A program made the position numbers and the translations under genes. This document shows, one piece after another, positions 6,778 to 39,200 of a stretch of DNA of 40,546 bases. Every line of letters starts with the position of its first letter. The stretch's first letter is position 1. This DNA comes from Macrostomum lignano. Taxonomy: Eukaryota. Location: assembly GCA_002269645.1 (NCBI GenBank), contig NIVC01000904.1, forward strand, positions 1 through 40,546, written 5' to 3'. Below the pieces are notes generated by a model. The model saw nothing but the letters and a program-made list of their open reading frames with translations, was not told the DNA's origin and ran no database searches.

Positions 6778-7248
6778 TCATTCTGCTCTCTCAACCCCCA
6801 GCTCTTTCAGCAGTCTTCCTAGTTCTTTCCTTGGTGCATGCAGTACAAAGCCCACCCCGCTCTCTCTCCCTGTGCACCCGCCCTCGCCTTCAACCCCCAA
6901 CCCCAATTTTGTCTTACTAAAAATAATAGCTTTAACTAGCTTCCGAGCAATAGACTCGCGAAATCCGCTTGAAGCCCCTATATTGTCGAGTCTCCTGAGC
7001 ATTTCTTTGTCCCAGCGATTCTTCTCCTCAGGAAAATCTCTATACTTAACGTCGTGCCACATGCAGACAGAGTCTAGCTCGTTCACAGGCTCATGCCCAG
7101 GATGTGGATTATTGTTTTTATCTAGCTGTATTTCAAGTGGATTCAAAGGCCCGCAATATTTATAGCCGGGAAGTGTCCAGCCTTTGTTTGGATGAGGAAG
7201 CTTTTCTATCAGTCCATGTGAATCTATTTTACCACCAGAGCGCTGCAT
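6778..7248 (-). CDS. Parvovirus-VP1-like phospholipase A2 (PLA2X) protein, intronless
   Basis: LPGYKYCGP Ca-loop, NELDSVCMWHDVKY catalytic HD, KTKLGLG end motif. ATG at 7248; a frameshifted tail may continue to about 6600. Confidence 0.9.
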   Translation of the reverse strand: MQRSGGKIDSHGLIEKLPHPNKGWTLPGYKYCGPLNPLEIQLDKNNNPHPGHEPVNELDSVCMWHDVKYRDFPEEKNRWDKEMLRRLDNIGASSGFRESIARKLVKAIIFSKTKLGLGVEGEGGCTGRESGVGFVLHAPRKELGRLLKELGVERAE

Positions 7249-23012: not shown

Positions 23013-26000
23013 ATGGAAGCAATTTTAGCTCAAATCGACAACCCTGAACTTAGAGCACAATTAATAGCTCAAATCGATGCACAACGAATTGCCGATAGGG
23101 CTGAAATAGAAGCAAGAATTAGGGCAGAAAATGAGATACGTTTAGAAAGACAATTAAATGATATTAATAACCCCCAACCACAAGGACAAAATGGAGCTGA
23201 AGTAATATATATAGATATAGATATAAATACAAATTATAAAGAATATTTTAAACAAATGAAAGATAAATTAAAGACCATATTAAACAATTATACTATAAGG
23301 CCAAATAACAAACGACAGCCAATTAAGTATAAAATAGAAGTTGAAACAGAATTTAAAAAACCAAATATTCTTAATGCAAATTCAGAAATTGAAGTAATAA
23401 ATAACTTTTCACAAGAATCATATAAAACATTATTATCAATGGGAAATTACAACAATCAATTCGATCAAATAGAAGCTGAGTTTGATGAATGGATAGATAA
23501 GATGACAGAAAACGGATCTGGGTTTATATTTGTATCCTGTAATTCAGCAATAGTAAAGATTGCACCTATAGAAATTCTTAAAGGACGATCACATATGAAG
23601 CTCAAATTTAAATCACCTATGATTATAAATCCAGACAATAAAGATAATAAATGTTTATTATGGTGTTTATTAATTCATAAATATCACAATCAAGTAGAAT
23701 CACACATTAATAAAATATATAATTATAGACAATATGAGGATGAAATAATAATGAAAAACATATCATACCCAGTAGCAATAGATGATATATATAAGATTGA
23801 AAAAATGAATGGTTTAAATATTAATGTGTTTACAATTGAAGAACCAAAAGATCTAGAAGAAATTTTAACCGATCCAGAATGGTATAAGAAAACTGTTATC
23901 TTGTTAAGCCAGCAACTGATATAACAGCACCAGATCAAATCGATCTTTTGTACATGCAGCGCGAAAATGAAACACATTATATATACATAAAAGATATTAG
24001 TTCTTTTTTAAGAGAAAATAGAAATAGATATCCACTATGTAGAAATTGTTTTACATTTAAAAAGGATGAAACAGCTCTTAAAAACCACCAACGATTTTGT
24101 TTAGATCACAAATTTACTAATGCTATAATGCCAGCATCTGAAGATGCAACCCTAAAGTTCCAACAACATTATATGGCAGTTAAAAAACCAATAGTAATAT
24201 ATGCTGATTTTGAAGCAACAAATGTTCCCTTAAAAGAATCACAGACGGTATCATCTGATGATGGGGAATGCACAAAAAAATTGGCACAACAGTTTCCGAA
24301 TAGTTATTGTATATATGTACACTCTGTAGCTGATCATATATTTAAATCAAGGATGATTACTTACCACGGTAATGATGCAGCTAAGCACATGGCAGAATCA
24401 TTAGTAAATGTATTTGAATATATTCAAAATCAATATGATAAATTATCAAAAAATATTAATATGACAAATAAGGATAGAGACAATTATAAAAATGCAACAA
24501 ATTGTTTTATGTGCAAAAGACATTTAAGTAAGAATAATAAGATACGAGAACATTGTCATCTAACAGGAAATTATCGAGGGGCAGCATGTAGATCATGTAA
24601 TGCAAAAGAAGGAAAAGGATGTAAGGAAATACCAGTATTTTTTCATAATGGTTCCGGATATGATTTTCATTTCTTAGTTCGAGAATTGCTTCATTTAGGA
24701 AAGGATGAATATGAAATAAATATATTACCTAAAACATCAGAAAATTACATATCAATAACATATGGTAAGAAATACTCCCATCTAGTTTTTCTAGATTCCT
24801 TGAGATTCTTATCAACATCTTTAGCAAATGTTGTTTCATCATTAGTTCCAAAACCATGGGATTTAGAAATAGTAAAGAAAAACTTTCCAATACTATTGAA
24901 TCGTTTCAAAAAGAAAAACTATCCGAGGAAGAACTAATGCTATTAACTCGTAAGGGCATCTATCCATATGAATATGTAACATCTGAAGACGTATTTTTTC
25001 ATACCGAATTACCCCCAATTGAAAAGTTTTATTCAACATTATCACAAACAAACATAAGTGAATCGGATTATGAACACGCTCAAAAAGTATGGAAATACTT
25101 TAATTGTAAAACATTTAAAGATTATCATAATCTATATCTTAAAGCAGATGTTCTCCTATTAGCTGATGCATTTGAAAACTTTAGGAATCATACATATGAG
25201 AATTTTAAAATTGATCCCGCATATTGTTTCAGTGCACCGGGATTAACATGGGCTTGTGGTTTGAAACATACAGATGTTAAGATTGATTTACTAACTGATC
25301 ATGATATGTTGTTAATGATTGAGAGAGGAATTCGCGGCGGATTCTCGGGTGTACTAGGAGATAGATATACTAAAGTAAATAATAAATATCTACCAAATTA
25401 TAATAAAAAAGAAAAATCATCATATGTATTATATCTAGATGCAAACAATTTATACGGTGGTTGTATGAAACAAAAATTACCAATAGCTGATTTCCAATGG
25501 GAAGATGACCCCGATTATTACAAAAATATTCCCGAAGGAAGGGGCTGTATCGTAGAAGTGGATTTGCAATATACTCGGGAAGCAAAAGCAAAAACATATA
25601 AATATCCTTTAGCTCCAGAGCATTGTTCAGTTAATGAAGATGATTTATCACAAACACAAAAAGATTATCTTAAAGTAGATAATGCAAAACATCTAGCAAC
25701 AAAAAAATTAATATTAAATTTACATGATAAGAAAAACTATGTAGTGCATTATAAGCTTCTACAATTTTATGAAAAGCAGGGATTAAAAGTGTCTAAAGTA
25801 CATCGAACAATATCGTTTATTGAGGAAGATTGGTTAGCTAAATATATTGACTTTAATTCAAATCAGAGACAGATGTCAAAAACAAATTTTGAGAAAGATT
25901 ATTGGAAATTAATGAATAATGCTTTTTATGGAAAAACGGTTGAAAATATTAGAGATAGAACCCAATTCCATTTAGAAAAGGATATTGATAAAGCAAAGAA

Positions 26001-26992
26001 ATATTTCTCAAAACCTAACTTTAAAGACTTTATAAAATTTGATGATAACTTTATGGGTATTCATATGAGAAATAAAACAACAAAATTTCTTAAACCAATA
26101 TTTATTGGAATGGTTGTTTTAGATTATGCAAAGCTGTAATGTATGAATACTATTATGATGTTATAAATAAAACATGGCCAGATAACTATCCAATATATGC
26201 AGACACCGACAGTTTGGTATTTAAGGTTGAAACAGATGATCGGGCAAAGCCGCGAACCAAAGGTTCGATGTCTATAAAGATATGGAAAAAATTAAGGATA
26301 CATTGGATACCTCCGACTATCCGGATAACCATCCTTTAAAATCAGATCAAAATAAAAAAGTTGTACTTAAAATGAAAGATGAATTAAATAGCAAAATCAT
26401 AACCGAGTTTATAGCAATAAGATCAAAATGCTATGCATTTAAGGTTTTAGGACAGGAGGGAGAGGTAAAAAAAATAAAAGGGGTATCAAGAGCAGCAGTA
26501 AAAAAGATAACATTTGATGATTATAAAAACGTACTTTTAGATTACCTTAATACAATTGAAAATTATCATGCTCCACAATATCGATTAAATTCAGATAAGC
26601 ATCAGATGTTTGTCATCGAGACAGATAAAAAAACATTAAGTCCATTTGATGATAAAAGATATTTAGATGATAAAATTAAAACATATCCATATGGTTTAAA
26701 AGAAGAGATAAAAAATATGATAAAAGATAAAAAACAAAAAGAAGATATAATAAGTAAATATAATGAATACAAAGCGGCAATAAATAATTATTATTACGAT
26801 TGTGATTGTGAATCCGAATGTGATTGTGAATATAATACATTTCTAGAATATGAAAAAGATATAGATAATTATTATTCAACATTTCCAAAAGAACTTAAAA
26901 AATTAAATAAGGAAAAAGTCTTGAATAACTGGAAGAGATTAACAGAAAAATTACTTATCGGGCGTAAAAAACTAAAGCATGTAATTGTTTAA
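23013..26992 (+). CDS. polB: Protein-primed family B DNA polymerase (pPolB), split by frameshifts
   Basis: vOTU-like DNKCLLWC...THYIYIKD, YADFE, CFMC..REHCHLTGNYRGAACRSCN, FHNGSGYDFHF, FLDSLRF, YLDANNLYG, KLMNNAFYGKT, YADTDS, KIKG, DDKRY. Confidence 0.96.
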
Positions 26993-27314
26993 GCATAATA
27001 TCATTTCAATTTCATATATATTGAGCCAATTTCCTCGCAGTCGTCAGGGTAACTTAAACAATCCTTTATTTTTTTCCTAAGTTTTTTTATTTTTCTAACC
27101 AATCTATCTATTTCAATTTCAATTACTATTTCAGCATAAACAATTCAGTTTAAAAAACGTTTTCTTTTATCTATTCATATCGGATGGGAAACATATCGTC
27201 CCCATACTCATGATATTTCTGAGATATAATTATATTTATTTTTTTATTAATATCATTAAGTTCACGCTCTTTAGTGATAAGGATTTTTATCGTATCCATT
27301 TTCTTATAAAAAAT

Positions 27315-27647
27315 TTAGTCTTCGTCGTCATCCTCCCAAACAGCCGCCAATTTTACAGTCCTATCACTCTTTTTATTATTTGTTTGTTTTAGTTTAAATT
27401 GCAATCCACCCTCGTTGCAGTATTTCATAACAAACGCTTTAGGTTTATTAATAACTAAAACAGGAAAATTTTTAACATCATCTCCGCTTAGACATAAAAT
27501 TTTTTGCCCATCTAATTGTAAAAATATTGATTGAAGCCCAATAAATTTAACCTGTCTCAAACATATAATATTATATTCTTTATTCTCCAACATATTGGGT
27601 GTGAGATAATTAATCACATTAGAATCGGTTTTGAACCAGCTCTCCAT
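27315..27647 (-). CDS. Small beta-rich protein with acidic tail (possible OB-fold ssDNA-binding protein)
   Basis: ATG at 27647 in an AAAAATG context; alternating beta-strand pattern; C-terminus WEDDDED. Confidence 0.5.
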   Translation of the reverse strand: MESWFKTDSNVINYLTPNMLENKEYNIICLRQVKFIGLQSIFLQLDGQKILCLSGDDVKNFPVLVINKPKAFVMKYCNEGGLQFKLKQTNNKKSDRTVKLAAVWEDDDED

Positions 27648-27672
27648 TTTTAATCTAAAAAAATAAAAAAAA

Positions 27673-27963
27673 ATGAAAGACATTTATGTTTGTAATAAAT
27701 GTAATGTGACTATGCACAGAGGGCAAACAGCAAACGGAGATATATATCATATGTGTTATTCATGTTCTAAAATATATCAATTTGAAAAAACAAAAAAGAT
27801 TGAAAACTCATATTACTATTTTAAAAACACAATTTTAAGAAATCTTACAAGAGACATTTCTGATCCAATTTTAATTCCCGGAAATAATGTTTATTTATAT
27901 AATAACTTTTTCCATTTAAATAAAGGAAAGGGATTAAGTTCGAAAGACTCGAAAGGATTTTAA
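27673..27963 (+). CDS. Small zinc-ribbon-like protein
   Basis: CNKC-x16-CYSC. Confidence 0.5.
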   Translation: MKDIYVCNKCNVTMHRGQTANGDIYHMCYSCSKIYQFEKTKKIENSYYYFKNTILRNLTRDISDPILIPGNNVYLYNNFFHLNKGKGLSSKDSKGF

Positions 27964-28150
27964 TTTTAGTTGGATATTATTTCAATTTTCTTATTCGAGA
28001 GAATACAAAGTTTATAAGGATAGGTAACATACCTAACGAAATGTTATTGAAAAAGTCATTGGAATTTTTATGTATTGATAAAAAATTTAAACCTAGGATC
28101 AGAAGAGAGTTACCACTTTGGGAAGAATATATAACATATGCATTAAAAAA

Positions 28151-28805
28151 CTAAACAACCTGAAGTTCTACAGCACTTCCTGACCGCGGGCTTTGTGCCC
28201 CAGTAGCAATAGTTTCAGGTTCGTAAATGCCTAATGTTTCTATCGGTGGAGCTTTGGGTTTATCGAGTCTCAACTCTTTTAATTCCATATCGGTAAAAGT
28301 TTCAACATCTAAAATTCTATTTCTATCTTTTAAATATTTTTCATATAATTCAACCGCGGTTGATAATTCATGAATCGTTATCTCTCCGTCATCCAATATT
28401 TTTTGCACATATAAATATAATTGATTTTTATATTGCTTGCAACATCTCTTAAGATTTATATTTTTCCTTTCTTTTTTTAAGATATAATTTAATTGCTAAA
28501 AGTATTGATAAGTTCCTGATCAATTCAAAACCTGATATTGAGCCAATTGAAATACCTAAAAATAATTGAGATAAATTAAGAGTTGGAATAGATTGTAAAA
28601 TACCTAAAACGATTACACATAACATTGATAAGCTTCCAAATCCAATATTGAAAAAGTCCATATTTCTTATATGGTTTGAAACTCTTCTTACTTTTTTAGC
28701 ATATAAATCATAATCATAGTTAATACGATCAACATTACTTAACATCTGACCTTTACGTTGGTTGAACCGGTCGCGTTCCCATTTATCTGCTTCAGATACC
28801 GACAT
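28151..28805 (-). CDS. Conserved Polinton membrane protein (GasderminX-like candidate), frameshifted
   Basis: Coiled coil, two hydrophobic helices, then ILDDGEITIHELSTAVELYEKY; homologous to 13153-13883. Confidence 0.7.
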
Positions 28806-28817
28806 TCTCGTCTATTT

Positions 28818-29117
28818 TTAATAGCACCAAAATGAATTCCCCACGCTCTTTGGGATTTGTCCCGAGCTCAATAGGTATTGTATTGGAGTTATTCTTTCTT
28901 TTTTCTCCCATTTAAATCCTATTTTCCAAAACTCTTGAAGTATAATATGATTTTTTAATAACTTAATTAATTCTTGAAGCTTCTTATTATCCTGAACATT
29001 TACAGTACTAAATAAAAATTTGGTATGAGATTTGAATGTTTTTATATTTGATTCTTGTTTAGGAATAGGAATAATAACATTATTTTGCCGCATCGATGGA
29101 GTTCTACTAAAAGCCAT
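28818..29117 (-). CDS. Hypothetical basic protein (about 99 aa)
   Basis: ATG at 29117 (AAAATG) within ORF 28818-29276. Confidence 0.45.
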   Translation of the reverse strand: MAFSRTPSMRQNNVIIPIPKQESNIKTFKSHTKFLFSTVNVQDNKKLQELIKLLKNHIILQEFWKIGFKWEKKERITPIQYLLSSGQIPKSVGNSFWCY

Positions 29118-29148
29118 TTTATATAGAAATATTTTATATATAAATATT

Positions 29149-31193
29149 TTATATTTGAGTAGGAGGTTTTTCCAAATAAGCAGTAGAGGGAAAAACATAA
29201 CCAAACGACGTACTACCACATACAACTGCACCACGAATAAAATGTGCAGCATCCGCTCCACCAGTTCGAGCACCAAAACCCATAAGGGTTCCAGATTTAT
29301 CTAAAGTTCCCCAAGTTCCACTATCATATGTGAAAACGTTCTGTCCAATGAGGGTAAAAGAATCACCAGCAACATTGTATGACTGTAATCGGTACCAAAC
29401 CCTTTGATTTAAAATATTAACTTCAAATAAATGCCAATCGCCGTTATCAATATTAGCATAGGCTACAGTTTGATCCGCATCACTACTAACATCGTTACGA
29501 ACCGTAGATCCGTCTGATTTTTTATTACTCCAAACAACTCCAAACCTATCAGTCCACTCACTAGCAAACACTATCAGCCCGGCGTCGGTTGATAATCCAG
29601 TTCCAAATTCCGATGTTGGACGTTCGTGACATATGCATAAAACCAAACCGCATCTGCACCATCTCCTGTAGAATTAGCAACTCGGAAAAAGAAAGACGCA
29701 GATATATTTTGAAAATGTGTGAAATTGAATTGTAAAGCACCACTTACTCCAGAAGTTTCACGAGTAATTCTAGCGCCGTTTTGATAATCGATATAAGAAG
29801 CATCGCAATTAAAGAACCGACTGGATATATATCTCCGGCGGTTGTTGGATTTTGATATCCAGACCAATTGCAAATTACTGGTTCGAACAAGGCCGCATCA
29901 ATAGCAGGTATTCCATCCAATTTATTTTTATCGCTTCCAGACATTCTACCATTTGATGTTGGAGTAGCTAGCTGATCTACGTACGCTCGCGGAACTGCAG
30001 AAAGTATTTGAGTTGGCCAATTAAGATCTTGAATTTCAACACGGTGTTCAAATAATTGTATTTGACGAACCTCGATAGGTTGTGTACCGGTACCACCAGT
30101 TGGGAAGAATACGCTATAATATTTCCAAAAATTAGTCGTTAAATTAGATAGAGCAAATGATGTTGCTTGAACTGGTGATCCCGACGTAGTTAATGTCGTC
30201 CATGAATCGGTAGCAACATTTTTTGCGCGAACCGACCACCCCGAGGGTATCTCAATTGTTTCACTGCCTGTAATTCTTAATTCAAATATTCTTCTATTAT
30301 AACCTAAAAATTCAAATTGAATTTCCATATTGGTTGTGGTTCCGGTATTTGGTGACCATTGTGTCGCAAGGCTTCCATCTCCAACTCGAAAAGCTGTGTT
30401 GCCATTTTCAGATGCTGTAAGAACAACATCAGGATTTGAAGTATTTGATGTAAGCGGCGTGGTAAAAATATCGGCGTCGGTTGCATTAGCTCGCTCGTTT
30501 ACTTGGCCTAGAGTTATCGAGTCTGCGTTCTCTGTTCCAAATAATAAATTTGTTAATTTAAAATTATTCATATTAATATTACCACTACGAGTGGCAACTT
30601 GATTATCGACATAGTTCTTATCAACCACTGAATCACTAGTTGTAATTGAAACATTTATAATTCGGTTGTTGCTCATATCTAGGTTTCCGGTTGCGGTGGT
30701 TTGAACATAACGTGAATCAGAATCAGTTCGAGAATAAGAATCAGTTACATCTCTTTTTAAATTTAATCCATTATCAACTTCGGTTTTGGTATAAGAATCG
30801 GCTACGTTCCGTTTCAAATTTAATGAATTATCAACTTCGGTTTTGGTATAAGAATCGGCTGTATTGCGTTTTAAATTTAATGAATTATCAACTTCGTTTT
30901 GGTATAAGAATCGGCTGTATTGCGTTTTAAATTTAATGAATTATCAACTTCGGTTTTGGTATAGGAATCGGCTACGTTCCGTTTCAGATTTAGTGAATCA
31001 TCTATTTGAGTTTTGGTATAGGAATCTGCAACATTTCTTTTTAAATTTAGTTTAGTATCAACTTCACTTTTTTTATAACCTTCATCTCATTAATATATCG
31101 ATTATCTCCAAATGTAACACTTATTCCACCAGATGTGCCACCACCACCACTACTTGTTGTTCCGTTCCATGAGGGTGTTCCAGAAAATAACAT
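29149..31193 (-). CDS. Modular fibre/receptor-binding protein (frameshifted)
   Basis: 19-aa repeats YTKTEVDNSLNLKRNxADS; LDMSNNRIINV/KNYVD shaft motifs; discoidin/F5-8-like domain; ATPTSNGRMSGSDKNKLDGI motif; C-terminal ConA/L-lectin-like domain (GDGADAVWF, DNGDWHLFEV). Confidence 0.75.
30725..31075 (-). repeat. 57-bp coding tandem repeat (about 6 copies) in the fibre gene
   Basis: ATACCAAAACCGAAGTTGATAATTCATTAAATTTAAAACG.. repeated on the minus strand. Confidence 0.9.
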
Positions 31194-31203
31194 TTTTTAC
31201 TGT

Positions 31204-31641
31204 CTATTTTATAGAGTCTAAAATATTCTTAAATACTTCGGGGGTTTCCTTCGAGTTATTAATTTTATATAAAAAATACAACGCCGCTTGCCCGCAATAA
31301 CTTTTATCAAAGGTTTGAAATTGTTCGTGATGATCTCCACATAAACGATTTTTAGTATGATTAAATTTATCTTTTATTTCCTGTAACGGAGGAAGCGCGT
31401 ATGAATCAAAAAAATAAACAAGTTTTGGTTTTGAATAAACTGCTGACCAATGAACACCATTTTCTTTTGTTGTTTCAATATTAACAATGAAAGATCCATA
31501 TTGTGGTAAGTCTTTGATCTCATCTCGCATAACACATCTGAATGGTTTTATTTTTAACTGCCTCGCCCAATTTGTTAATTCGATATTGCTTGTTGTGTCC
31601 GTTCCATATCTTTGTTTAAAATCATCCCACGTCATGGTCAT
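31204..31641 (-). CDS. Adenain-like cysteine protease, intact
   Basis: GVHWSAV, FFDSYA, FQTFDKSYCG: His-Asp-Gln-Cys all present. Confidence 0.95.
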   Translation of the reverse strand: MTMTWDDFKQRYGTDTTSNIELTNWARQLKIKPFRCVMRDEIKDLPQYGSFIVNIETTKENGVHWSAVYSKPKLVYFFDSYALPPLQEIKDKFNHTKNRLCGDHHEQFQTFDKSYCGQAALYFLYKINNSKETPEVFKNILDSIK

Positions 31642-31642
31642 T

Positions 31643-31822
31643 TTATGTTCCTGAAAAACTCTTGGTTTTAGTTAGTTTCGTAGGTGTGGGTTTTAACAAT
31701 TCCTTTCTTATTTTATCAGCTTGTAACTGCCTTAATTTTGCTAGTTCTAGTTCGTAATTATCTTCAGCTTTTTTAACTTTTTCTGATTGTTTTTTTATTA
31801 AATTATTATTATTATTACCCAT
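31643..31822 (-). CDS. Small basic coiled-coil protein (59 aa, MGNNNNN...)
   Basis: Read by eye; AAAAATG context; fills the gap between penton and protease exactly. Confidence 0.5.
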   Translation of the reverse strand: MGNNNNNLIKKQSEKVKKAEDNYELELAKLRQLQADKIRKELLKPTPTKLTKTKSFSGT

Positions 31823-31832
31823 TTTTACAGTA

Positions 31833-32618
31833 CTAAACCTGTTTTATACGTAAAATTATTGTTATTGACTGCCCACCAAAACTTATTAATCTATCGCTTT
31901 CATCTACAATCCTAATATAAATTGATTGAACATTATATTGATTTAATGGGTAATATATTGGGGTTTGAGGTGATACAATCATTTTCTCTCCAATTGGAAC
32001 AGCAAGAAATGGGATTGAATAAATAATTCCACGTTGAACCAAAACTCCGTTATCGTCTGTTATATAACCACCGTTTGAAATGTCGGTTGTTATATTAATT
32101 GTATTTACTCCACCCTCTATATTTCCAACTGTATCACCGGTGCTTGATGTGGTAACTATTCGGGAATTAAATCCAAGTATGGTTCTGAGTGAATTTGCAA
32201 TTGTGAAATCAACCTGATATCCGGATCCTAGTGATAGTGTGAATCTGCCAGACGGTAAATCAACACCTATAACAATTGCTCCTGCTACCCAATCACCATT
32301 AGTTGTTAATTCTCCTTCTATATAAGCATTCAAATCAGTATAGCTATACGCTCCTGGGTTAACGCTAAATGTTGTCCAATTGGCTCCGGAATCTTTAGAA
32401 TATCTAAATTGATTATTTGTTGCATTAATTAATTGAGGCATGTTGAAAACCGAAAATAGTATTAAACCTATTTGATAACTTAGGCTTTGATCAAGTTGTA
32501 ATGGATCGCGCAATTGAATCCGTTGCTCGCTGGTTGTCATTATAAACTGTAATGTTGTACTAAATTTTGAATTAGTTCGATCTACCAATTGTTTTATAGT
32601 ATTTAAATTTGTAGTCAT
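31833..32618 (-). CDS. Minor capsid protein (penton, single jelly-roll)
   Basis: PGAYSYTDLN, SLRTILGF, INITTDI, IIYSIP, PIYYPL, IYIRIVDE..RLISFGG..ITIILRI. Confidence 0.92.
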   Translation of the reverse strand: MTTNLNTIKQLVDRTNSKFSTTLQFIMTTSEQRIQLRDPLQLDQSLSYQIGLILFSVFNMPQLINATNNQFRYSKDSGANWTTFSVNPGAYSYTDLNAYIEGELTTNGDWVAGAIVIGVDLPSGRFTLSLGSGYQVDFTIANSLRTILGFNSRIVTTSSTGDTVGNIEGGVNTINITTDISNGGYITDDNGVLVQRGIIYSIPFLAVPIGEKMIVSPQTPIYYPLNQYNVQSIYIRIVDESDRLISFGGQSITIILRIKQV

Positions 32619-33448
32619 TTTTATAGTGGGAAATTAATCGTACGAAGGTACGCGACCCTATGCGATCATTCTTCTTCCTCATATCTTCTTTTATCAAATT
32701 TTTAAATTCTATTTTCCTTTCTAACCTCGGATTGATATAAATATGTTTGTATTGGCTATCATCCCAAATTTTTTTACACATACTTTTAAATGGTTTTGCA
32801 TCCAATCCGGGATTAAATCTAGCGTGAATATTTTGTAATCATATTATCTAAATCAAACATTACACAACAGCTTGCATTCTTTTTTATAATCGATTCTAAT
32901 TCTCTAAAGGATTGAGTAAGATAAAAAGCTCCAATTCCATCTCCTCTACCACTAACAAAAATTTCCTTTTGCAATTCTTGATCACCGTCATTAATACAAT
33001 CATCAAAAATAATTAGTGTTTTATCATGTTTTGGAATTTGATCATAGGCTAATCGGGTTGATACTCTAACAGTTGGGGCTCGATCGGACGAAGTCCGCGA
33101 CCCTTCGGGGCGATCGGTGATGTTTTCTGGCTGTTGTGCCATTGTTTTACATAAATCCTCAATGTCTGCTAGATTAAATCGCGGTTCGTCATCATCCTCA
33201 TATTGCTCATATGCTCTTAACATTCTAAACAAGACATCTTTTTTTAATTTGTTTTTTAATCCATGTTTAAGAAATTCATAATATTTTATTCTAGGTTTAT
33301 TAGTATAAATTATTAAATTATTATAGTCTAACATTCCATCTGTGTTTAAATCGTAAACAAAGTGTGTTTTTCCTTTACCTGATCCTCCGATTACTAAACA
33401 AAGAAAAGGATCATTTGGAAATATCTTATCGTGTTTTGCCTTTACCAT
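32572..33448 (-). CDS. A32/FtsK-like packaging ATPase (frameshift at about 32830)
   Basis: Walker A IGGSGKGKT, Walker B LIIFDD, SGRGDGIGAFYLTQS. Confidence 0.92.
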
Positions 33449-33499
33449 TTTTAAAGAAATAATTTAAATAGGCGCGACGGTCGGAGACCTGCACTCATT

Positions 33500-34972
33500 T
33501 TACAATGGTGCGTCCCGAACAATCGTGCCATCAGCTTTAGCAATTGACATATATTCCTCTAGAAACAATACGTGGGCGTCAAGTGCCTGATTACCGGTTT
33601 TATTAATCTCTAACATATAATTAAGTCCAATATTGGCTACGTTTTCTTTCTGTGCCGTTAGATCATAAACAACCACTGGATGAATGTTTAGAAACTCTGT
33701 GGGTGTGTACTGAGGGACGGCATACGCTTCATTTTTAGCATAATCTTGATAATATTTTATAAAATCATTAACATTATTATTTGCTATATTTAAATTTAGG
33801 GGGTCTTTAACCGGATAATATTGATCATCAACCTGCAGGCGGATATTCTGAACATTAAACTCGTTAATAGCTGCAGCCGCATTGTCTGTTGCGGTGGCTG
33901 CTTGTTCTGCTATGGCACCGGATTGAAGCCAATATAAATCCCCATTTGCTCTTTTACTCCTTCTATTTGTTATCTTAAACCAAACAAAAATATATCTCAC
34001 CCGACGTTTTGATGTCAGTATTTGCCACTGGAATGAATCCTGGTTATTATTAATGGTTCGCATAAAATGTCGACGATTCAAATAAAATATTTCCTGATCA
34101 TGCGTTAACTGATTATCGATGTGTTTTAAAAGTGGGGCTGTTACCTCAATAGTTGGTACGACTAATTGAATTGAATCTATACGAACTGCTATATCGGTTG
34201 AAATTGAGGTTCCATAAAGTATCCTAGGCTGATATCCACCAGATATTTGCAACTGTATCCCAAATTTTAATCCTTTCCATACCCGATTTGGTGAGAAAAA
34301 CCCAAATAGTGGAAAGATTGAAAAGTCCTGCTCATATGCTGTTGCTGTGGTTAAAACCGCGACTGGGAATTTATTCTGACGATCTATAAAACCAGTATTA
34401 ATATCTTTTGTATTAGTCATAGTGGTTACAACTGGAACTATGTTTGTATTAAGGTAAACAATTAGCGCTGCAGTATCTGCACCGGCTGCGTTTTGTACAT
34501 TAGGGAAAACTACTGCTTGACCGTTACCTTTATCCGGCATCCACCCAACATTATCACCAACTTGTTTTGATAAATAAGTATAATTTAAATGTTTCAAAAC
34601 TCCATTAATCTCTGCGGGGTTTGATGATGTCTCAACCTCAGCACCATTAACAGTTAGTTGAGCTTGGGAAAAACATTTATAAAACCAATCATTTTCTATT
34701 ATTATTCCGGATCGATCTGCGATATCTCCGGCTGCAAGAGCAGTTCCATCATTTCTAGTATACAACCATCTAACGCGGAAAAACGCATTTTTCATATCCA
34801 ATATAGTGTTGGTTGCGCCGATGTCAAAAGTTACCGTTCCAGTAGTAAAGTTATTTGAATTATCACTTGTTGGTAGGGTATAATTTAAATCTCTTGCTCT
34901 GACCTCATTAATATACTGTCGGTGCTTTTTGAAATGAAATTTATCACTCCACATAGTTTTTGTTTCAGCCAT
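33500..34972 (-). CDS. Double jelly-roll major capsid protein, intact (490 aa)
   Basis: ENDWFYKCFSQAQLTVNGAEVE, FPLFGFF, IQLVVPTIE, RYIFVWF, NIRLQVDDQYYP, HPVVVYDLT. Confidence 0.92.
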   Translation of the reverse strand: MAETKTMWSDKFHFKKHRQYINEVRARDLNYTLPTSDNSNNFTTGTVTFDIGATNTILDMKNAFFRVRWLYTRNDGTALAAGDIADRSGIIIENDWFYKCFSQAQLTVNGAEVETSSNPAEINGVLKHLNYTYLSKQVGDNVGWMPDKGNGQAVVFPNVQNAAGADTAALIVYLNTNIVPVVTTMTNTKDINTGFIDRQNKFPVAVLTTATAYEQDFSIFPLFGFFSPNRVWKGLKFGIQLQISGGYQPRILYGTSISTDIAVRIDSIQLVVPTIEVTAPLLKHIDNQLTHDQEIFYLNRRHFMRTINNNQDSFQWQILTSKRRVRYIFVWFKITNRRSKRANGDLYWLQSGAIAEQAATATDNAAAAINEFNVQNIRLQVDDQYYPVKDPLNLNIANNNVNDFIKYYQDYAKNEAYAVPQYTPTEFLNIHPVVVYDLTAQKENVANIGLNYMLEINKTGNQALDAHVLFLEEYMSIAKADGTIVRDAPL

Positions 34973-35006
34973 TTTTTTAAGTTAAAAAAGTTTTTTATGT
35001 TAAAAA

Positions 35007-35674
35007 ATGAGTCAATTTATGGACGTTGATGGAGAGTTAGCGATTTATAAAGAGAAGCAAAGATATTCTGATTTTGTTAGAAATTTACAAAAAAGAAAGT
35101 TAGGAATACAATTAGCTGGCGAAAGATTTGCTGCTCCTTTTGTTAATCCTATTACTGGGAAAATTAGTGAACTAGAAAAAACAGATAAAGATCTTCTGGA
35201 AAAAATTGCTAAAAATACTGAGCCAAAAGAGGATGAAATTTTGGATGAGCCGCCTGCTTATGATGTTGATCAAGCACAATTGAGAGTTTAGAGATTAGGG
35301 CTGAAGAGATTAGGGGTGGAGTTGATCGGAACAATTTCCAAGAGTACCACCTAGTATTGCTGTACAGATTTAGGTAATAATAATTATCGAATTGGTAACG
35401 TTGATAAAGATCGAAATGAACTATATACAGAATTGGGTGGAGCATATAATATTATTATGAACCCTAGGGTAAAATTTAACCCGATTTATATACTAGGATG
35501 AATTAGTAAGTGCTAAATTTTTTATGATGAGTTAGGAGGAGCTGTTAAAAATACCAGCTTGTATAAATGGATTGTTAATTCTATAAATAACAAACCAGCT
35601 GTTGGTGATGGATTTAAAACCCGCGAAAACTTGTTTTAGCTGCTGCGAAAGCTGCTGGACATACAGGTGTTTAA
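35007..35674 (+). CDS. Conserved Polinton protein (PZ-like), several frameshifts
   Basis: N-terminal RFAAPFVNPITGK; C-terminal GDGF..LAAAKAAGHTGV parallels element 1 GKG..LLGAAKTG. Head-to-head with MCP. Confidence 0.55.
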
Positions 35675-35697
35675 TTGTTAAATTTATTTTTTATAAA

Positions 35698-36201
35698 ATG
35701 GATAATACGATAAAAGATTGTCTTTGTAAACCTATTTATGATAAGGCTGGTTCTGACAGAATACTAAATAAGATATTTCAAGATGAATTAATAATTGCAA
35801 ACCGTATTAAAACAATTCAAATGAGACTTGGATATCTTTATGAATTATTAGCTATTAAACATTTTGGTTTTGAAAAAGTAAATAAAATTGATTTAATTCA
35901 TACAGAAAGAAAAGTTGCGTTAGAGTTAAAATCTTCTGATAACACAGATAATTCATCAAGTCGATTTAGAAATATTCAAAAGTTATTAGAATTTAAATAT
36001 GTTAATCCCGAATTTGATTTATATTATATTTGCATTAATAATACTACTAAAAACCCCGTACAAAAAGTATTTGATAATGGAGTTACCTTGTTAACTGGGG
36101 AATTTGCTTTAAATTTTTTATATGGTGATCAATATTTAGAAATTATTAAATTGATAGAAACATGTTTTTTAAACATTAAAAATGAACCAACTTGTGTTTG
36201 A
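35698..36201 (+). CDS. PD-(D/E)xK endonuclease, Eco47II/giant-virus restriction-endonuclease-like (167 aa)
   Basis: QMRLGYLYE..IDL-x8-LELKSSDNTDNSSS..NIQKL motif; intact ORF, ATG at 35698; the stop overlaps the PLA2 start. Confidence 0.75.
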   Translation: MDNTIKDCLCKPIYDKAGSDRILNKIFQDELIIANRIKTIQMRLGYLYELLAIKHFGFEKVNKIDLIHTERKVALELKSSDNTDNSSSRFRNIQKLLEFKYVNPEFDLYYICINNTTKNPVQKVFDNGVTLLTGEFALNFLYGDQYLEIIKLIETCFLNIKNEPTCV

Positions 36202-36307
36202 TGGAGGATTGTTAGATGTTCAAAAAGGATTAACAAGCTTACCACCAATCTTTACTACTGGGAGGTATACAAATGAATTACACATCCCATCTTACAACTT
36301 CGCGGGT
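36182..36307 (+). CDS. Exon 1 of PLA2-integrase gene (42 codons, ends LHIPSYNFAG)
   Basis: Open frame from ATG 36182 to GGT 36307 encoding the first half of the parvoviral PLA2 Ca-loop; DGG-LL protease-type site. Confidence 0.85.
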
Positions 36308-36632
36308 GGAGCTCGAGCTGTGCCCGAGTGGTAGATGCAAAGCTACTGCTAGTCACTATTAGTGGCAACACCAGCCGCTCACTCAATCCCCTAAAGCTTC
36401 AAGTACCACTTTGTTTTCGAAAGATTACAAAGGAACAGAGGTAACTCCTCTTCCCAACGGTAACAAGCTTGAAGATAAATATATGGGCAAGAGTGAATCG
36501 AAAACCTAACCTCATATGACTTGAGTATGGTTGAGATGCAACGACTGTACGCTGGTGGGCTTGAAGGACTTAGTCAATCCTTATGATAGCTTAAGACACA
36601 GTCTACTCCTTTGTGAAAGCAAAGGTATAAAG
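36308..36632 (+). ncRNA. Group I self-splicing intron (IC1-like, ORF-less, 325 nt)
   Basis: P1 exon CGGGU/IGS GCCCG (36322-26) with U.G at the 5' splice site; P3 CACCAGC 36369-75/GCTGGTG 36551-57; P4 TCACTC 36379-84/GAGTGA 36491-96; P5a CTTCAAG/CTTGAAG with GGTAACAAG A-rich bulge; P5b GAAA and P5c GTAA loops; J6/7 GCA; P7 A(C)GACTGT 36541-48/ACAGTCT 36598-604; J8/7 TAAGAC; P9 CCTTTGT-GAAA-GCAAAGG; terminal G at 36632 or 36633. Confidence 0.92.
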
Positions 36633-37783
36633 GCCGGGTTGACTCGACTCGATCTCCGATTAAATCCTGACAATACTCCAAAATCTGATTCAATTCCAAT
36701 AAATGGGATTGATTGGTTAGCATACTATCACGACTTAGCATATAGAGATGCTGACAAGAACCCGCCCGAGGAAGCATTAAGATTAAAACATGAAGCCGAT
36801 CAAAAAATGATTCAAGGATTAGATAACTTGCAGGGATTATCGGTAGGGCAAAGATTAACTAGGTGGATGGTTAAAAAGATTTTGCAGTCTAAAGTTAAAT
36901 TTGGTTTGGGAATTAATTATAATCAACATGGAAATAATTGTGTCGAGTGTTTATTATTAAGTGGTGGTGGGTTAAGTTCTGATGAGGCAAAGATTCTTCA
37001 TAAAGAATATCGAAAACCTAAATTTTATAGAAAAATCATGAACTTCAAAAAGAATGAAATTTGGTATGCTGATTTAATGTCGATGCCGAACGAAAGAGGA
37101 TATAAATATATCTTAACCATATTAGATGGTTTTACTCGATACGCGTGGGCTGTTCCTTTAAAATCCAAAAAGGGAGAGGAGGTTGCTGCTGCTTTTAGAA
37201 GTCTTGGAGAAAAAAGCGAAAGATTGTGTGTTGATGAAGGAAAAGAATTTTACAATCCTCATATGTATAAATTGTATCATTTTGAAAAAGGAAAAGAAAG
37301 GAAAAAAGACGCGAATGGGGAGTATATTAATAAAATTTATTCTATTTATGGAGAGAGTAAAAACGCATTAATAGAAAGATTTAATCGAACTTTAGGTAAG
37401 AAATTATGGTTTCAGTTTAGTCTTAATGGTAACCAAAAGTGGGTAAAAATATTACCAGACGTAGTGAAAGATTATAACAATTCATATCATTCAGCTATAA
37501 AGATGACTCCTCAACAAGCTTATAACAATCCTGAAAAGTTAAAGTTACTTTTGGAAAATTTGAAAAAAATAAAAAGAAATCTTTTAAGGTTGGTGATTCT
37601 GTTTATATCTATAAATGGAAAGATAAGTTTGAAAAAGGAAGAAAAGGATATTGGAAGATAAGTGAGAAATTTACTATCAGTAAAGTTTTAAATACCAATC
37701 CTACAACCTATATAATTGCTGATAAGGACGGTGAAGAAATATTGGGTTCTTTTTATGAGAACCAGATAATGTCTGCGAACTAA
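36633..37783 (+). CDS. int: Exon 2 of PLA2-integrase fusion (PLA2 catalytic half plus rve integrase; frameshift at about 37570)
   Basis: INGIDWLAYYHDLAY...KVKFGLG (PLA2), LSGGG linker, then WYADL / CVDEGKEF / LIERFNRTL (DDE). C-terminal KVGDSV..FEKG..GSFYENQI lies in another frame. Confidence 0.92.
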
Positions 37784-37793
37784 GTTCAAACAG

Positions 37794-37961
37794 TTACTTA
37801 AGACAACATGGTAGTAAATTTTTTATTACAAACAAAAACAATATTATTACTATAATTGTTACTAATATTATTATTGACATTTGTTCAACTGTTATCAAAC
37901 TTAAATTTTCATTAAGTTCATTAATTGGAACATTTCCGATGTAGGAATAGTTTACCTTCAT
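37794..37961 (-). CDS. Small single-pass membrane protein (55 aa)
   Basis: IIILVTIIVIILFLFVI followed by KNLLPCCLK; AAAAAAATG context. Confidence 0.5.
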   Translation of the reverse strand: MKVNYSYIGNVPINELNENLSLITVEQMSIIILVTIIVIILFLFVIKNLLPCCLK

Positions 37962-38034
37962 TTTTTTATATATATTTTTCACAATAAATGTCGTTTCTGT
38001 TATAGAATAATAGTTCATTTTTTAAATATTTTTT

Positions 38035-38349
38035 TCACATAAAAATTTCACTTTCATTCTCTGAATCACTGGTTTCATATGAACTATTTGTTGATTCGGA
38101 ATCTGTTGATCTAACCTCCCAATCATCCGAATTTAAATAATCTCCAAGTTGAAATATTAACTCACCCTCTTGTTCTAAATCATACATCTCATCTAGCTCT
38201 AATGGATAAAGTTTTAGGTCGTGCTTGTCGTCATATTTTAAATAAACTTCATCAATTATTCCATTCAAAATATGTTGTTTTATTATCTCTGCATTTTTAG
38301 CAACAGTCTCAAAAGTATCACTAACAGAAAAGGTGTAAACTCGGGTCAT
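38035..38349 (-). CDS. Small acidic hypothetical protein (104 aa)
   Basis: First ORF inside the right TIR; AAAAATG context; Ser/Glu-rich tail. Confidence 0.55.
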   Translation of the reverse strand: MTRVYTFSVSDTFETVAKNAEIIKQHILNGIIDEVYLKYDDKHDLKLYPLELDEMYDLEQEGELIFQLGDYLNSDDWEVRSTDSESTNSSYETSDSENESEIFM

Positions 38350-38366
38350 TTTTAGTAACAGAAAAA

Positions 38367-38674
38367 GACCCTTCGCGCCTGCGGCGCGGGCAAGGGGTTA
38401 TAGAGTAGTAGTATAGAAAAAGACGCTTCTAGACCAGAGCACTTTTTTAATTACCGTTTTTAAGGTCTTAAGAGGGGGGACGCGAGGGGAGTATTGGGGA
38501 GTGTTTGGAAGTGTTGGGATTGATTTTTATTGTTAGGGGTGATTATGGGTGATTGGATGTGTTAAGGGTGATTAGATGTGTTTTTTTATTTACCCCCCGT
38601 GTCCCCCCTCTAGACCCTTAAAACGGTAATTAAAAAAGTGCTCTGGGTCTAGAAGCGTCTTTTTCTATACTACT
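38367..38674 (-). repeat. Right TIR of element 2
   Basis: Ends ...TTTTTCTATACTACT; reverse complement of 20939-21246. Confidence 0.95.
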
Positions 38675-38865: not shown

Positions 38866-39200
38866 TTTTTTTCTTAGACGCAGGGGCTGTGTACACCCCG
38901 GCGCAATTTAGGCGACATTGTCACACAACCGGCGAGAGGCATTACTGCCCATTCCACAGACTCGTACGCAGTCATATGCACAGGCACACACTCACACAGG
39001 AGTGTACAGCGGCCCCAACTTTATTTATCGTTATTCATGTACACTTCACTGTGCTTTGGGGATTTGGCCTCAAGGCCGTTAATTTCACGAGAAAAACCCA
39101 AGTCGAGGTTCCAATTTAGCCCCAAATTAATGTGACTGCACTTGAAATCTAGCCTGGGCAGCTGGCACATCAGAGCGCCGCGCTAGACCGCTGGCTCCCC
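38866..39200 (-). mobile_element. tRNA-derived SINE, same family as 19935-20291 (more diverged)
   Basis: Reverse complement shares AAGTGCAGTCACATTAATTTGGGG, AGTGAAGTGTACATG, GGGCCGCTGTACA and CCTGTGTGAGTGTGTGCCTG. Confidence 0.85.

Follow-up and report, generated by a model that had tools for sequence, protein, structure and literature searches.

A Polinton in the genome of the animal Macrostomum lignano carries a small restriction-like nuclease gene just upstream of a group I intron that has no ORF of its own, which raises the question of what the nuclease does for the intron. The locus lies in a stretch of 40,546 nt (contig NIVC01000904.1, assembly GCA_002269645.1), hereafter the window. 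A preliminary description of the sequence saw a candidate collaborative-homing pair, in which the nuclease would cut the intronless form of the interrupted PLA2 gene, and set against this a weapon that attacks competitors or host DNA at a short palindrome.

The window holds two Polintons (Table 1). Element 2, with the nuclease and intron, has the hallmarks of Polinton/Maverick elements: terminal inverted repeats, an rve integrase, a packaging ATPase and, as assigned from motifs, size and position, polymerase B and a capsid. The stretches that flank it, 19981-20230 and 38922-39157, are inverted copies of each other (85-92%), as if the element lay inside another repeat. Element 1 had no nuclease match, as described earlier, and its intronless PLA2 gene served as a control. 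All coordinates and motifs given earlier for the nuclease ORF were confirmed: it is intact, overlaps the PLA2 start (36182) by 20 nt, ends 106 nt from the last exon-1 base (36307), and encodes D65-x10-E76-L-K78 followed by SSDNTDNSSS. An in-frame ATG lies upstream at 35608; sister copies start at 35698.

Table 1. Features of the two Polintons in the window (positions are those of the whole stretch).
Feature	Position	Strand	Remarks
Intronless PLA2 of Polinton element 1 (control)	6778..7248	-	Gly-Pro GGNCC intact at 7148
Polinton element 2 (family A)	20944..38667		17,724 nt between terminal inverted repeats
Polymerase gene in four pieces, element 2	23013-26992		Assigned from motifs, size and position
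A32 ATPase, element 2	32819-33448		Basis: Pfam
Probable capsid gene, element 2	33500-34972		Inferred from size and position
Eco47II/EcoO109I-like PD-(D/E)xK endonuclease	35698..36201	+	167 aa, intact, free-standing in exchangeable slot
Exon 1, PLA2-integrase fusion gene	36182..36307	+	42 codons; ends in Gly codon
Group I intron, ORF-less, minority type W	36308..36632	+	Basis: Rfam, fold, junction table
Exon 2, PLA2 remainder in frame with rve integrase	36633..37661	+	

Judged by sequence profiles and a structural model, the window ORF is an Eco47II/EcoO109I-like nuclease of predicted PD-(D/E)xK fold, with a sub-threshold Pfam match and a moderate structural one. Pfam RE_Eco47II (PF09553) matched at E 3.9e-5 and 23.8 bits, below the curated cut-off of 25.9, which several homologs pass. 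The model (pLDDT 89) was most similar to EcoO109I (Z 8.4, rmsd 4.0, 162 residues aligned), with the next match at Z 6.1 and other restriction enzymes ranking below EcoO109I; Foldseek returned DdmD, EcoO109I (E 4e-4) and AvaII, in agreement with the fold first proposed. The Atlas placed the protein in Eco47II (0.94) and EcoO109I clusters, and the Eco47II clusters have Nucleocytoviricota among their members. A viral fold library gave weak restriction-like matches, and a profile search of PDB sequences gave chance matches only. E49, D65, E76 and K78, together with the T-D-N-S-S-S loop, are invariant across 11 nuclease sequences. Profile searching recovered 290 relatives, some of them fused to C5 methylases (distant relatives P0025 and P0122), from which we conclude that the family derives from restriction-modification systems. 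The earlier claim that element 2 lacks a methyltransferase was borne out, as Pfam matched no methyltransferase family among the 32 window ORFs, and none of the 12 C5-methylase (PF00145) matches genome-wide falls on the window's contig.

The intron interrupts a gene whose natural intronless alleles encode a single PLA2-integrase fusion of 424-452 aa, on which Pfam matched PF08398 and rve. These alleles fix the insertion site: the U of the Gly codon that closes exon 1 is the 5' splice site, and this codon forms the left half of a split GGNCC. The intron contains no ORF, as first described, and matches RF00028 (E 1.9e-9, 42.9 bits); with a gathering score of 50 it is missed at the Rfam threshold, above which sister introns at the same site score 88.9, 82.6 and 61.1 bits. 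The introns of L075 and L105 had no Rfam match. A conserved P3-P7 core is present (P3 36370/36551; P4 36379/36491; P7 36543/36599), and in the window intron and its sisters the 5' splice-site U is paired in P1 (36303-36307/36322-36326 in the window); the fold has a z of -2.65, with 0/100 shuffles as good. The 3' end lies at 36632, which keeps the frame, or at 36633, which gives better predicted P10 pairing but is followed by a stop. The in-frame junction would read Gly-Ala, as do 5/76 outside proteins at this point, and the exon-2 frame of the window copy stops earlier than in most sister copies. Spliceosomal removal was considered and rejected by inspection, as GT/AG choices at the junctions shift the frame. 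Four of 23 sequence runs, with contigs of uncertain kind and 88% likeness, contained no joint across the intron, which is uninformative either way.

We next place the locus among its relatives in the 764-Mb M. lignano assembly, whose Wnt proteins mark it as an animal genome. Its 102 nuclease matches fall into two groups, families A and B. The census of family A, to which the window belongs, started from the top-scoring matches and kept those places in which both exons are present, at least 139 distinct ones; loci missing either exon were excluded, and L148 and L160 were classified manually. In the slot ahead of exon 1, 37 places have the PD-(D/E)xK nuclease, 99 have an HNH/endonuclease-VII-like ORF and 3 have a remnant; 24 have an intron of the window's type W, 112 one of type M and 3 none. 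The nuclease is intact in 26 of its 37 copies, with a pN/pS of 0.44, and dN/dS between the nucleases of families A and B is 0.24. At least three variants of the HNH-like ORF (190-205 aa; e.g. L032, L033, L075 and L111:3460-4029) take the place of the nuclease, their start and overlap lying in an unchanged context, and 70/99 are intact; they match PHROG 1035 (E 4e-9) and Atlas HNH clusters (0.87-0.89). Such an ORF fills the slot in all three intronless alleles; the target of these proteins is evidently not their own intronless junction.

All 37 family-A nuclease copies have the intron, with only three intronless alleles sampled; none of those three carries the nuclease, and the comparison (0/37 intronless against 3/102 among other copies) is not significant (p 0.56). 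An HNH-like ORF or remnant fills the slot in 99/136 intron-bearing copies, and the nuclease stands beside 7/24 W and 30/112 M introns, so that the slot gene is independent of the intron type (Fisher p 0.80) and co-transmission of nuclease and intron was not found in family A. One reading is the classical collaborative pair, in which a dedicated free-standing enzyme with a long junction site moves in cis with its intron. Adjacency and the absence of the nuclease from intronless alleles speak for it; however, 17/24 W-intron copies have another slot gene, and a long site would leave the loss of every GGNCC described below unexplained, so we regard it as very improbable. What survives of the pair first proposed is a free-standing nuclease beside an ORF-less intron, never found with an intronless allele; a dedicated partnership in cis does not.

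Copies whose slot genes differ carry one identical W intron, and their exon 2 differs by 4-5% from +39 on, a pattern that, at the level of sequence, resembles a short conversion tract; intronless L111 differs from the identical-W copies at 2/110 exon-1 bases. The W intron shares P2, P2.1 and a long P5 extension with types M and B and differs in its P3-P4-P6-P7 core, which suggests a chimeric intron. The terminal base is G in the window's type, family B and L211 (an unrelated metagenome contig), whereas 83/112 type-M introns (e.g. L007, L016 and L079) end, just before the Pro codon, in A instead of the canonical G. Exon 2 stays open in 64 of these 83, type-M P7 has paired changes relative to family B, and the 83 may be natural A-ending group I introns. 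L105-L107 are old W-like intron remnants (74% identical) with PLA2 exon 2, with no exon 1 or nuclease nearby. L108 (G000:C1063, C1064), a family-A locus, was rejected as a case of nuclease without PLA2, as an unrelated sequence with three cysteine-rich RING-like ORFs interrupts the nuclease and cuts it short.

Family B is distant from family A (capsid 27% and PLA2-integrase about 60% identical), and DNA similarity between the two is confined to the surroundings of the integrase, nuclease and intron. In the 16 interrupted loci examined, a group I intron at the same PLA2 codon encloses the nuclease ORF (58-67% identical), and the introns pass the Rfam threshold; none of 16 intronless loci examined has the nuclease. 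Cross-referencing the genome match lists by hand, we counted the nuclease in 29/31 intron-bearing and 0/20 intronless places (Fisher 3e-12, among copies that are related), the two exceptions being degenerate. Together with the 0/3 of family A, these counts agree with the co-occurrence of nuclease and intron anticipated in the preliminary description. Loss of the ORF from the intron is seen in L118 (G000:C1464), a degenerate intron of family B that lacks the nuclease ORF and has an expanded tandem repeat.

This arrangement extends beyond M. lignano. In L211 a group I intron at this PLA2 site again contains a homologous nuclease, and in both family B and L211 the ORF is peripheral within the intron, placed between P2 and the core. 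The tails of eight database nuclease homologs read through an intron core. IMG/VR scans yielded nothing related to the nuclease, to exon 2 of L211 or to an intron motif. Six outside PLA2-integrase proteins (P0159, P0162, P0180, P0184, P0192 and P0216) have matches that start exactly at the Pro after the intron site; some can tentatively be paired with homologs of the nuclease, a hint that this intron occurs in additional multi-copy families. The homologs inside introns in family B and L211 mark the nuclease as a homing-endonuclease-type gene, and the idea of a strictly free-standing partner had to be given up. In the tree, family A is sister to family B and nested among intron-encoded homologs (supports 90/84, 89/79, 80/47 and 91/79); on this branching, the nuclease probably left the intron secondarily in family A, making the free-standing state the derived one.

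What might such a nuclease cut? EcoO109I recognizes RGGNCCY, Sau96I GGNCC, and AvaII and SinI GGWCC. The intron splits the Gly-Pro codon pair of a PLA2 motif, which reads GGNCC for any codon choice and is retained in 69/76 outside PLA2-integrase proteins that span the site. GGNCC is reported as the sequence cut by Eco47II homologs in the available part of one source (PMC10305163).

The same word has vanished from element 2, with 0 GGNCC in 17,724 nt against 15.7-21.1 expected. Among 544 gapped words none is more strongly depleted, and words that differ from it by one letter occur at 1.0-1.1 of expectation. Codon-order shuffles of element 2 contain a mean of 11.7 sites and 0/500 reach zero; synonymous-only shuffles, a weaker comparison, have a mean of 4.1 with 8/500 at zero. 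Pro-Gly is also scarce (2 against 7.3 expected), and CCNGG (8 against 21-25) and CTNAG (15 against 40) are low too, but present. Nuclease-free element 1 has 15 GGNCC (17-18 expected) and the rest of the window 15 (20-24 expected). A host mutation bias can be rejected as the cause of the purge, as element 1 and the flanks keep their sites.

The purge recurs in both families. The 37 family-A nuclease loci have 0 GGNCC in 117 kb, and the 96 HNH loci have 7, all within foreign insertion; the sites of L054 and L136, considered as counter-examples, were rejected for lying in foreign insertion. In the aligned parts of the three intronless family-A loci (L111-L113) only the junction GGNCC remains. Family-B copy L219 has none (10.7 expected), the word again ranking first in depletion, and ten intron-bearing family-B stretches have none; of ten intronless ones, eight keep only the junction GGNCC, L228 has four further sites and L231 has lost the junction site. 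Twelve further long stretches hold two GGNCC between them, one within an element and the other a little beyond the aligned part; L233, with one extra site, is an exception to the purge. The copies are related and their totals not independent, families A and B being the two nearly independent cases. Single-step gains of GGNCC number 0 in family A against 18.2 expected, with five control motifs at 0.55-1.5 times expectation; in family B the count (3 against 9.2 expected) is uninformative, as controls are low too.

Copies with an HNH-like slot ORF or without the intron are purged as well, so that, from one copy to the next, site loss does not follow the presence of the nuclease. This would suit a reading in which an outside GGNCC enzyme, such as the restriction system of a parasitised giant virus, selected both purge and intron, and the captured nuclease is a passenger with other or no activity. 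The C5-methylase fusions among distant relatives and the Nucleocytoviricota in the Eco47II clusters also point this way. However, the nuclease is under purifying selection with its catalytic residues intact and sits inside the intron that breaks the only site, and element 1 in the same host is not purged; we consider an outside enzyme distinctly improbable.

We suggest instead, as the probable reading, that a type II restriction-derived GGNCC cutter serves the group I intron of PLA2 as an endonuclease for both homing and competition. This reading draws on the anatomy, the fold, the placement in or beside the intron, the absence from intronless alleles and a word-specific purge that spares the insertion site; from these we infer expression, cleavage of GGNCC with this specificity, splicing and homing. 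Lacking a methylase, these Polintons would have purged GGNCC from their own DNA instead, except for the PLA2 Gly-Pro, whose single GGNCC would rarely be lost since the protein code forces it. An intron within the junction GGNCC would mask the site in DNA, and the common intron types would restore it in RNA. An intronless sibling would then offer a single cut site, exactly at the insertion point, and a cut there with repair from an intron-bearing copy would spread the intron. The genome-wide purge would thereby make a 5-bp cutter site-specific, and the intron would be at once an immunity that takes the place of a methylase and a homing passenger. In family B the nuclease would travel inside the intron, as in ordinary homing. 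In family A it lies 126 nt upstream, in a slot that HNH-like ORFs also occupy; there it would probably serve every intron-bearing copy in trans, and most of the benefit must arise in trans. Of the two possibilities first set out, the PLA2 junction as likely target thus stands; opposing a junction cutter to a short-palindrome weapon does not, since the likely site GGNCC is the junction itself.

How much of this activity is homing and how much warfare is a matter of weight. With the same GGNCC specificity, the nuclease could serve mainly to attack rival Polintons, a giant virus or the chromatin of the host in a replicative phase, with the intron serving as immunity only and homing rare or incidental. 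A site this short would expose host DNA to cutting, and element 1 at 15 positions; the free reassortment of slot genes with intron types also fits this role. From the parts of the literature available, giant-virus restriction systems are proposed to exclude co-infecting viruses (PMC7253447), and an intron endonuclease of phage PhiPA3 mediates interference competition (PMC11620839). Yet the intron-encoded position in several lineages fits homing, as do the near-fixed introns of family A (136/139) and the identical W intron in divergent flanks, which we take as signs of homing at the sequence level. A mainly weapon-like nuclease therefore seems unlikely to us, although the two roles are not exclusive. 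Host DNA contains a GGNCC about every 650 nt (15 in 9.8 kb), so expression of the nuclease must be silenced, compartmented or confined to a lethal phase. We see an even chance that orphan 5-bp cutter, genome-wide site loss and masking ribozyme together replace the methylase in a methylase-free restriction system that is both gene drive and weapon against unpurged competitors.

If our preferred reading of a homing and competition endonuclease is true, it reveals a direct path from restriction enzyme to homing endonuclease in which no longer site evolves: the genome changes and the enzyme does not. It would also give a group I intron a concrete benefit, immunity, to its host element, and add a protein-coding gene in the nuclear genome of an animal to the places where group I introns occur; a methylase-free restriction system would further imply that self-splicing and homing are active in protein-coding genes of the animal nucleus. 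Because intron-encoded and free-standing nucleases coexist in one genome, the debated order of events becomes testable, and selection against the cut site implies that these Polintons meet and recombine as free DNA.

We found no description of this system in the freely accessible main texts searched; a supplementary table of introns could still name these elements. No such intron is reported in the available parts of a paper on nematode Polintons (10.1101/2023.08.22.554363) and of one on adintoviruses (PMC8502044). Reviews, as far as available, place nuclear group I introns only in rRNA genes of microbial eukaryotes, and those of animals mostly in mitochondrial genes of early-branching animals (PMC3679873; PMC11835236), sponge mitochondrial introns being the subject of another study (PMC5360047). 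Protist Polinton-like viruses carry RF00028 introns of about 310-380 nt (PMC12220804), similar to those described here; in the accessible text these lie near the capsid gene with no homing endonuclease identified, whereas in the animal studied here the introns interrupt PLA2-integrase and are accompanied by a nuclease with a predicted target. Collaborative homing for Polinton-like elements appears in the accessible portions of two sources as a hypothesis only (PMC11296320; bioRxiv 10.64898/2026.10.13.758929).

The window pair is in its working closest to F-CphI and the ORF-less psbA intron of cyanophage S-PM2, a case of collaborative homing in the source text available (PMC6083498; PMC3984707). 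The present host, however, is an animal Polinton, the fold is PD-(D/E)xK as opposed to Endo VII, the predicted site is 5 bp long and purged from the whole element, the slot is exchangeable, co-transmission fails, and by the tree the nuclease seems to have left the intron, whereas the path proposed for such pairs runs the other way. Like intron homing endonucleases, the ORF of family B and L211 is peripheral in its intron, and the intron disrupts the target. Characterised homing endonucleases mostly have sites of >14 bp (PMC3984707, accessible part), and I-Ssp6803I, an intron homing endonuclease that shares the PD-(D/E)xK fold, one of 17 bp (PMC3424549, accessible part); in contrast, the nuclease described here belongs to the Eco47II family (PF09553) and not that of I-Ssp6803I, the purge pattern points to a 5-bp site, and uniqueness seems to follow from the avoidance of a short palindrome throughout the genome. 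With Eco47II/EcoO109I and giant-virus restriction-modification systems the nuclease shares the fold, the motif and the predicted GGNCC site (PMC10305163; PMC7253447; both as far as available). Unlike type IIP and giant-virus systems, the nuclease has no cognate methylase, and self-protection would come from site loss and the intron; we read the system as a variant of intron homing, with a fair chance that it amounts to a methylase-free restriction system of a new kind.
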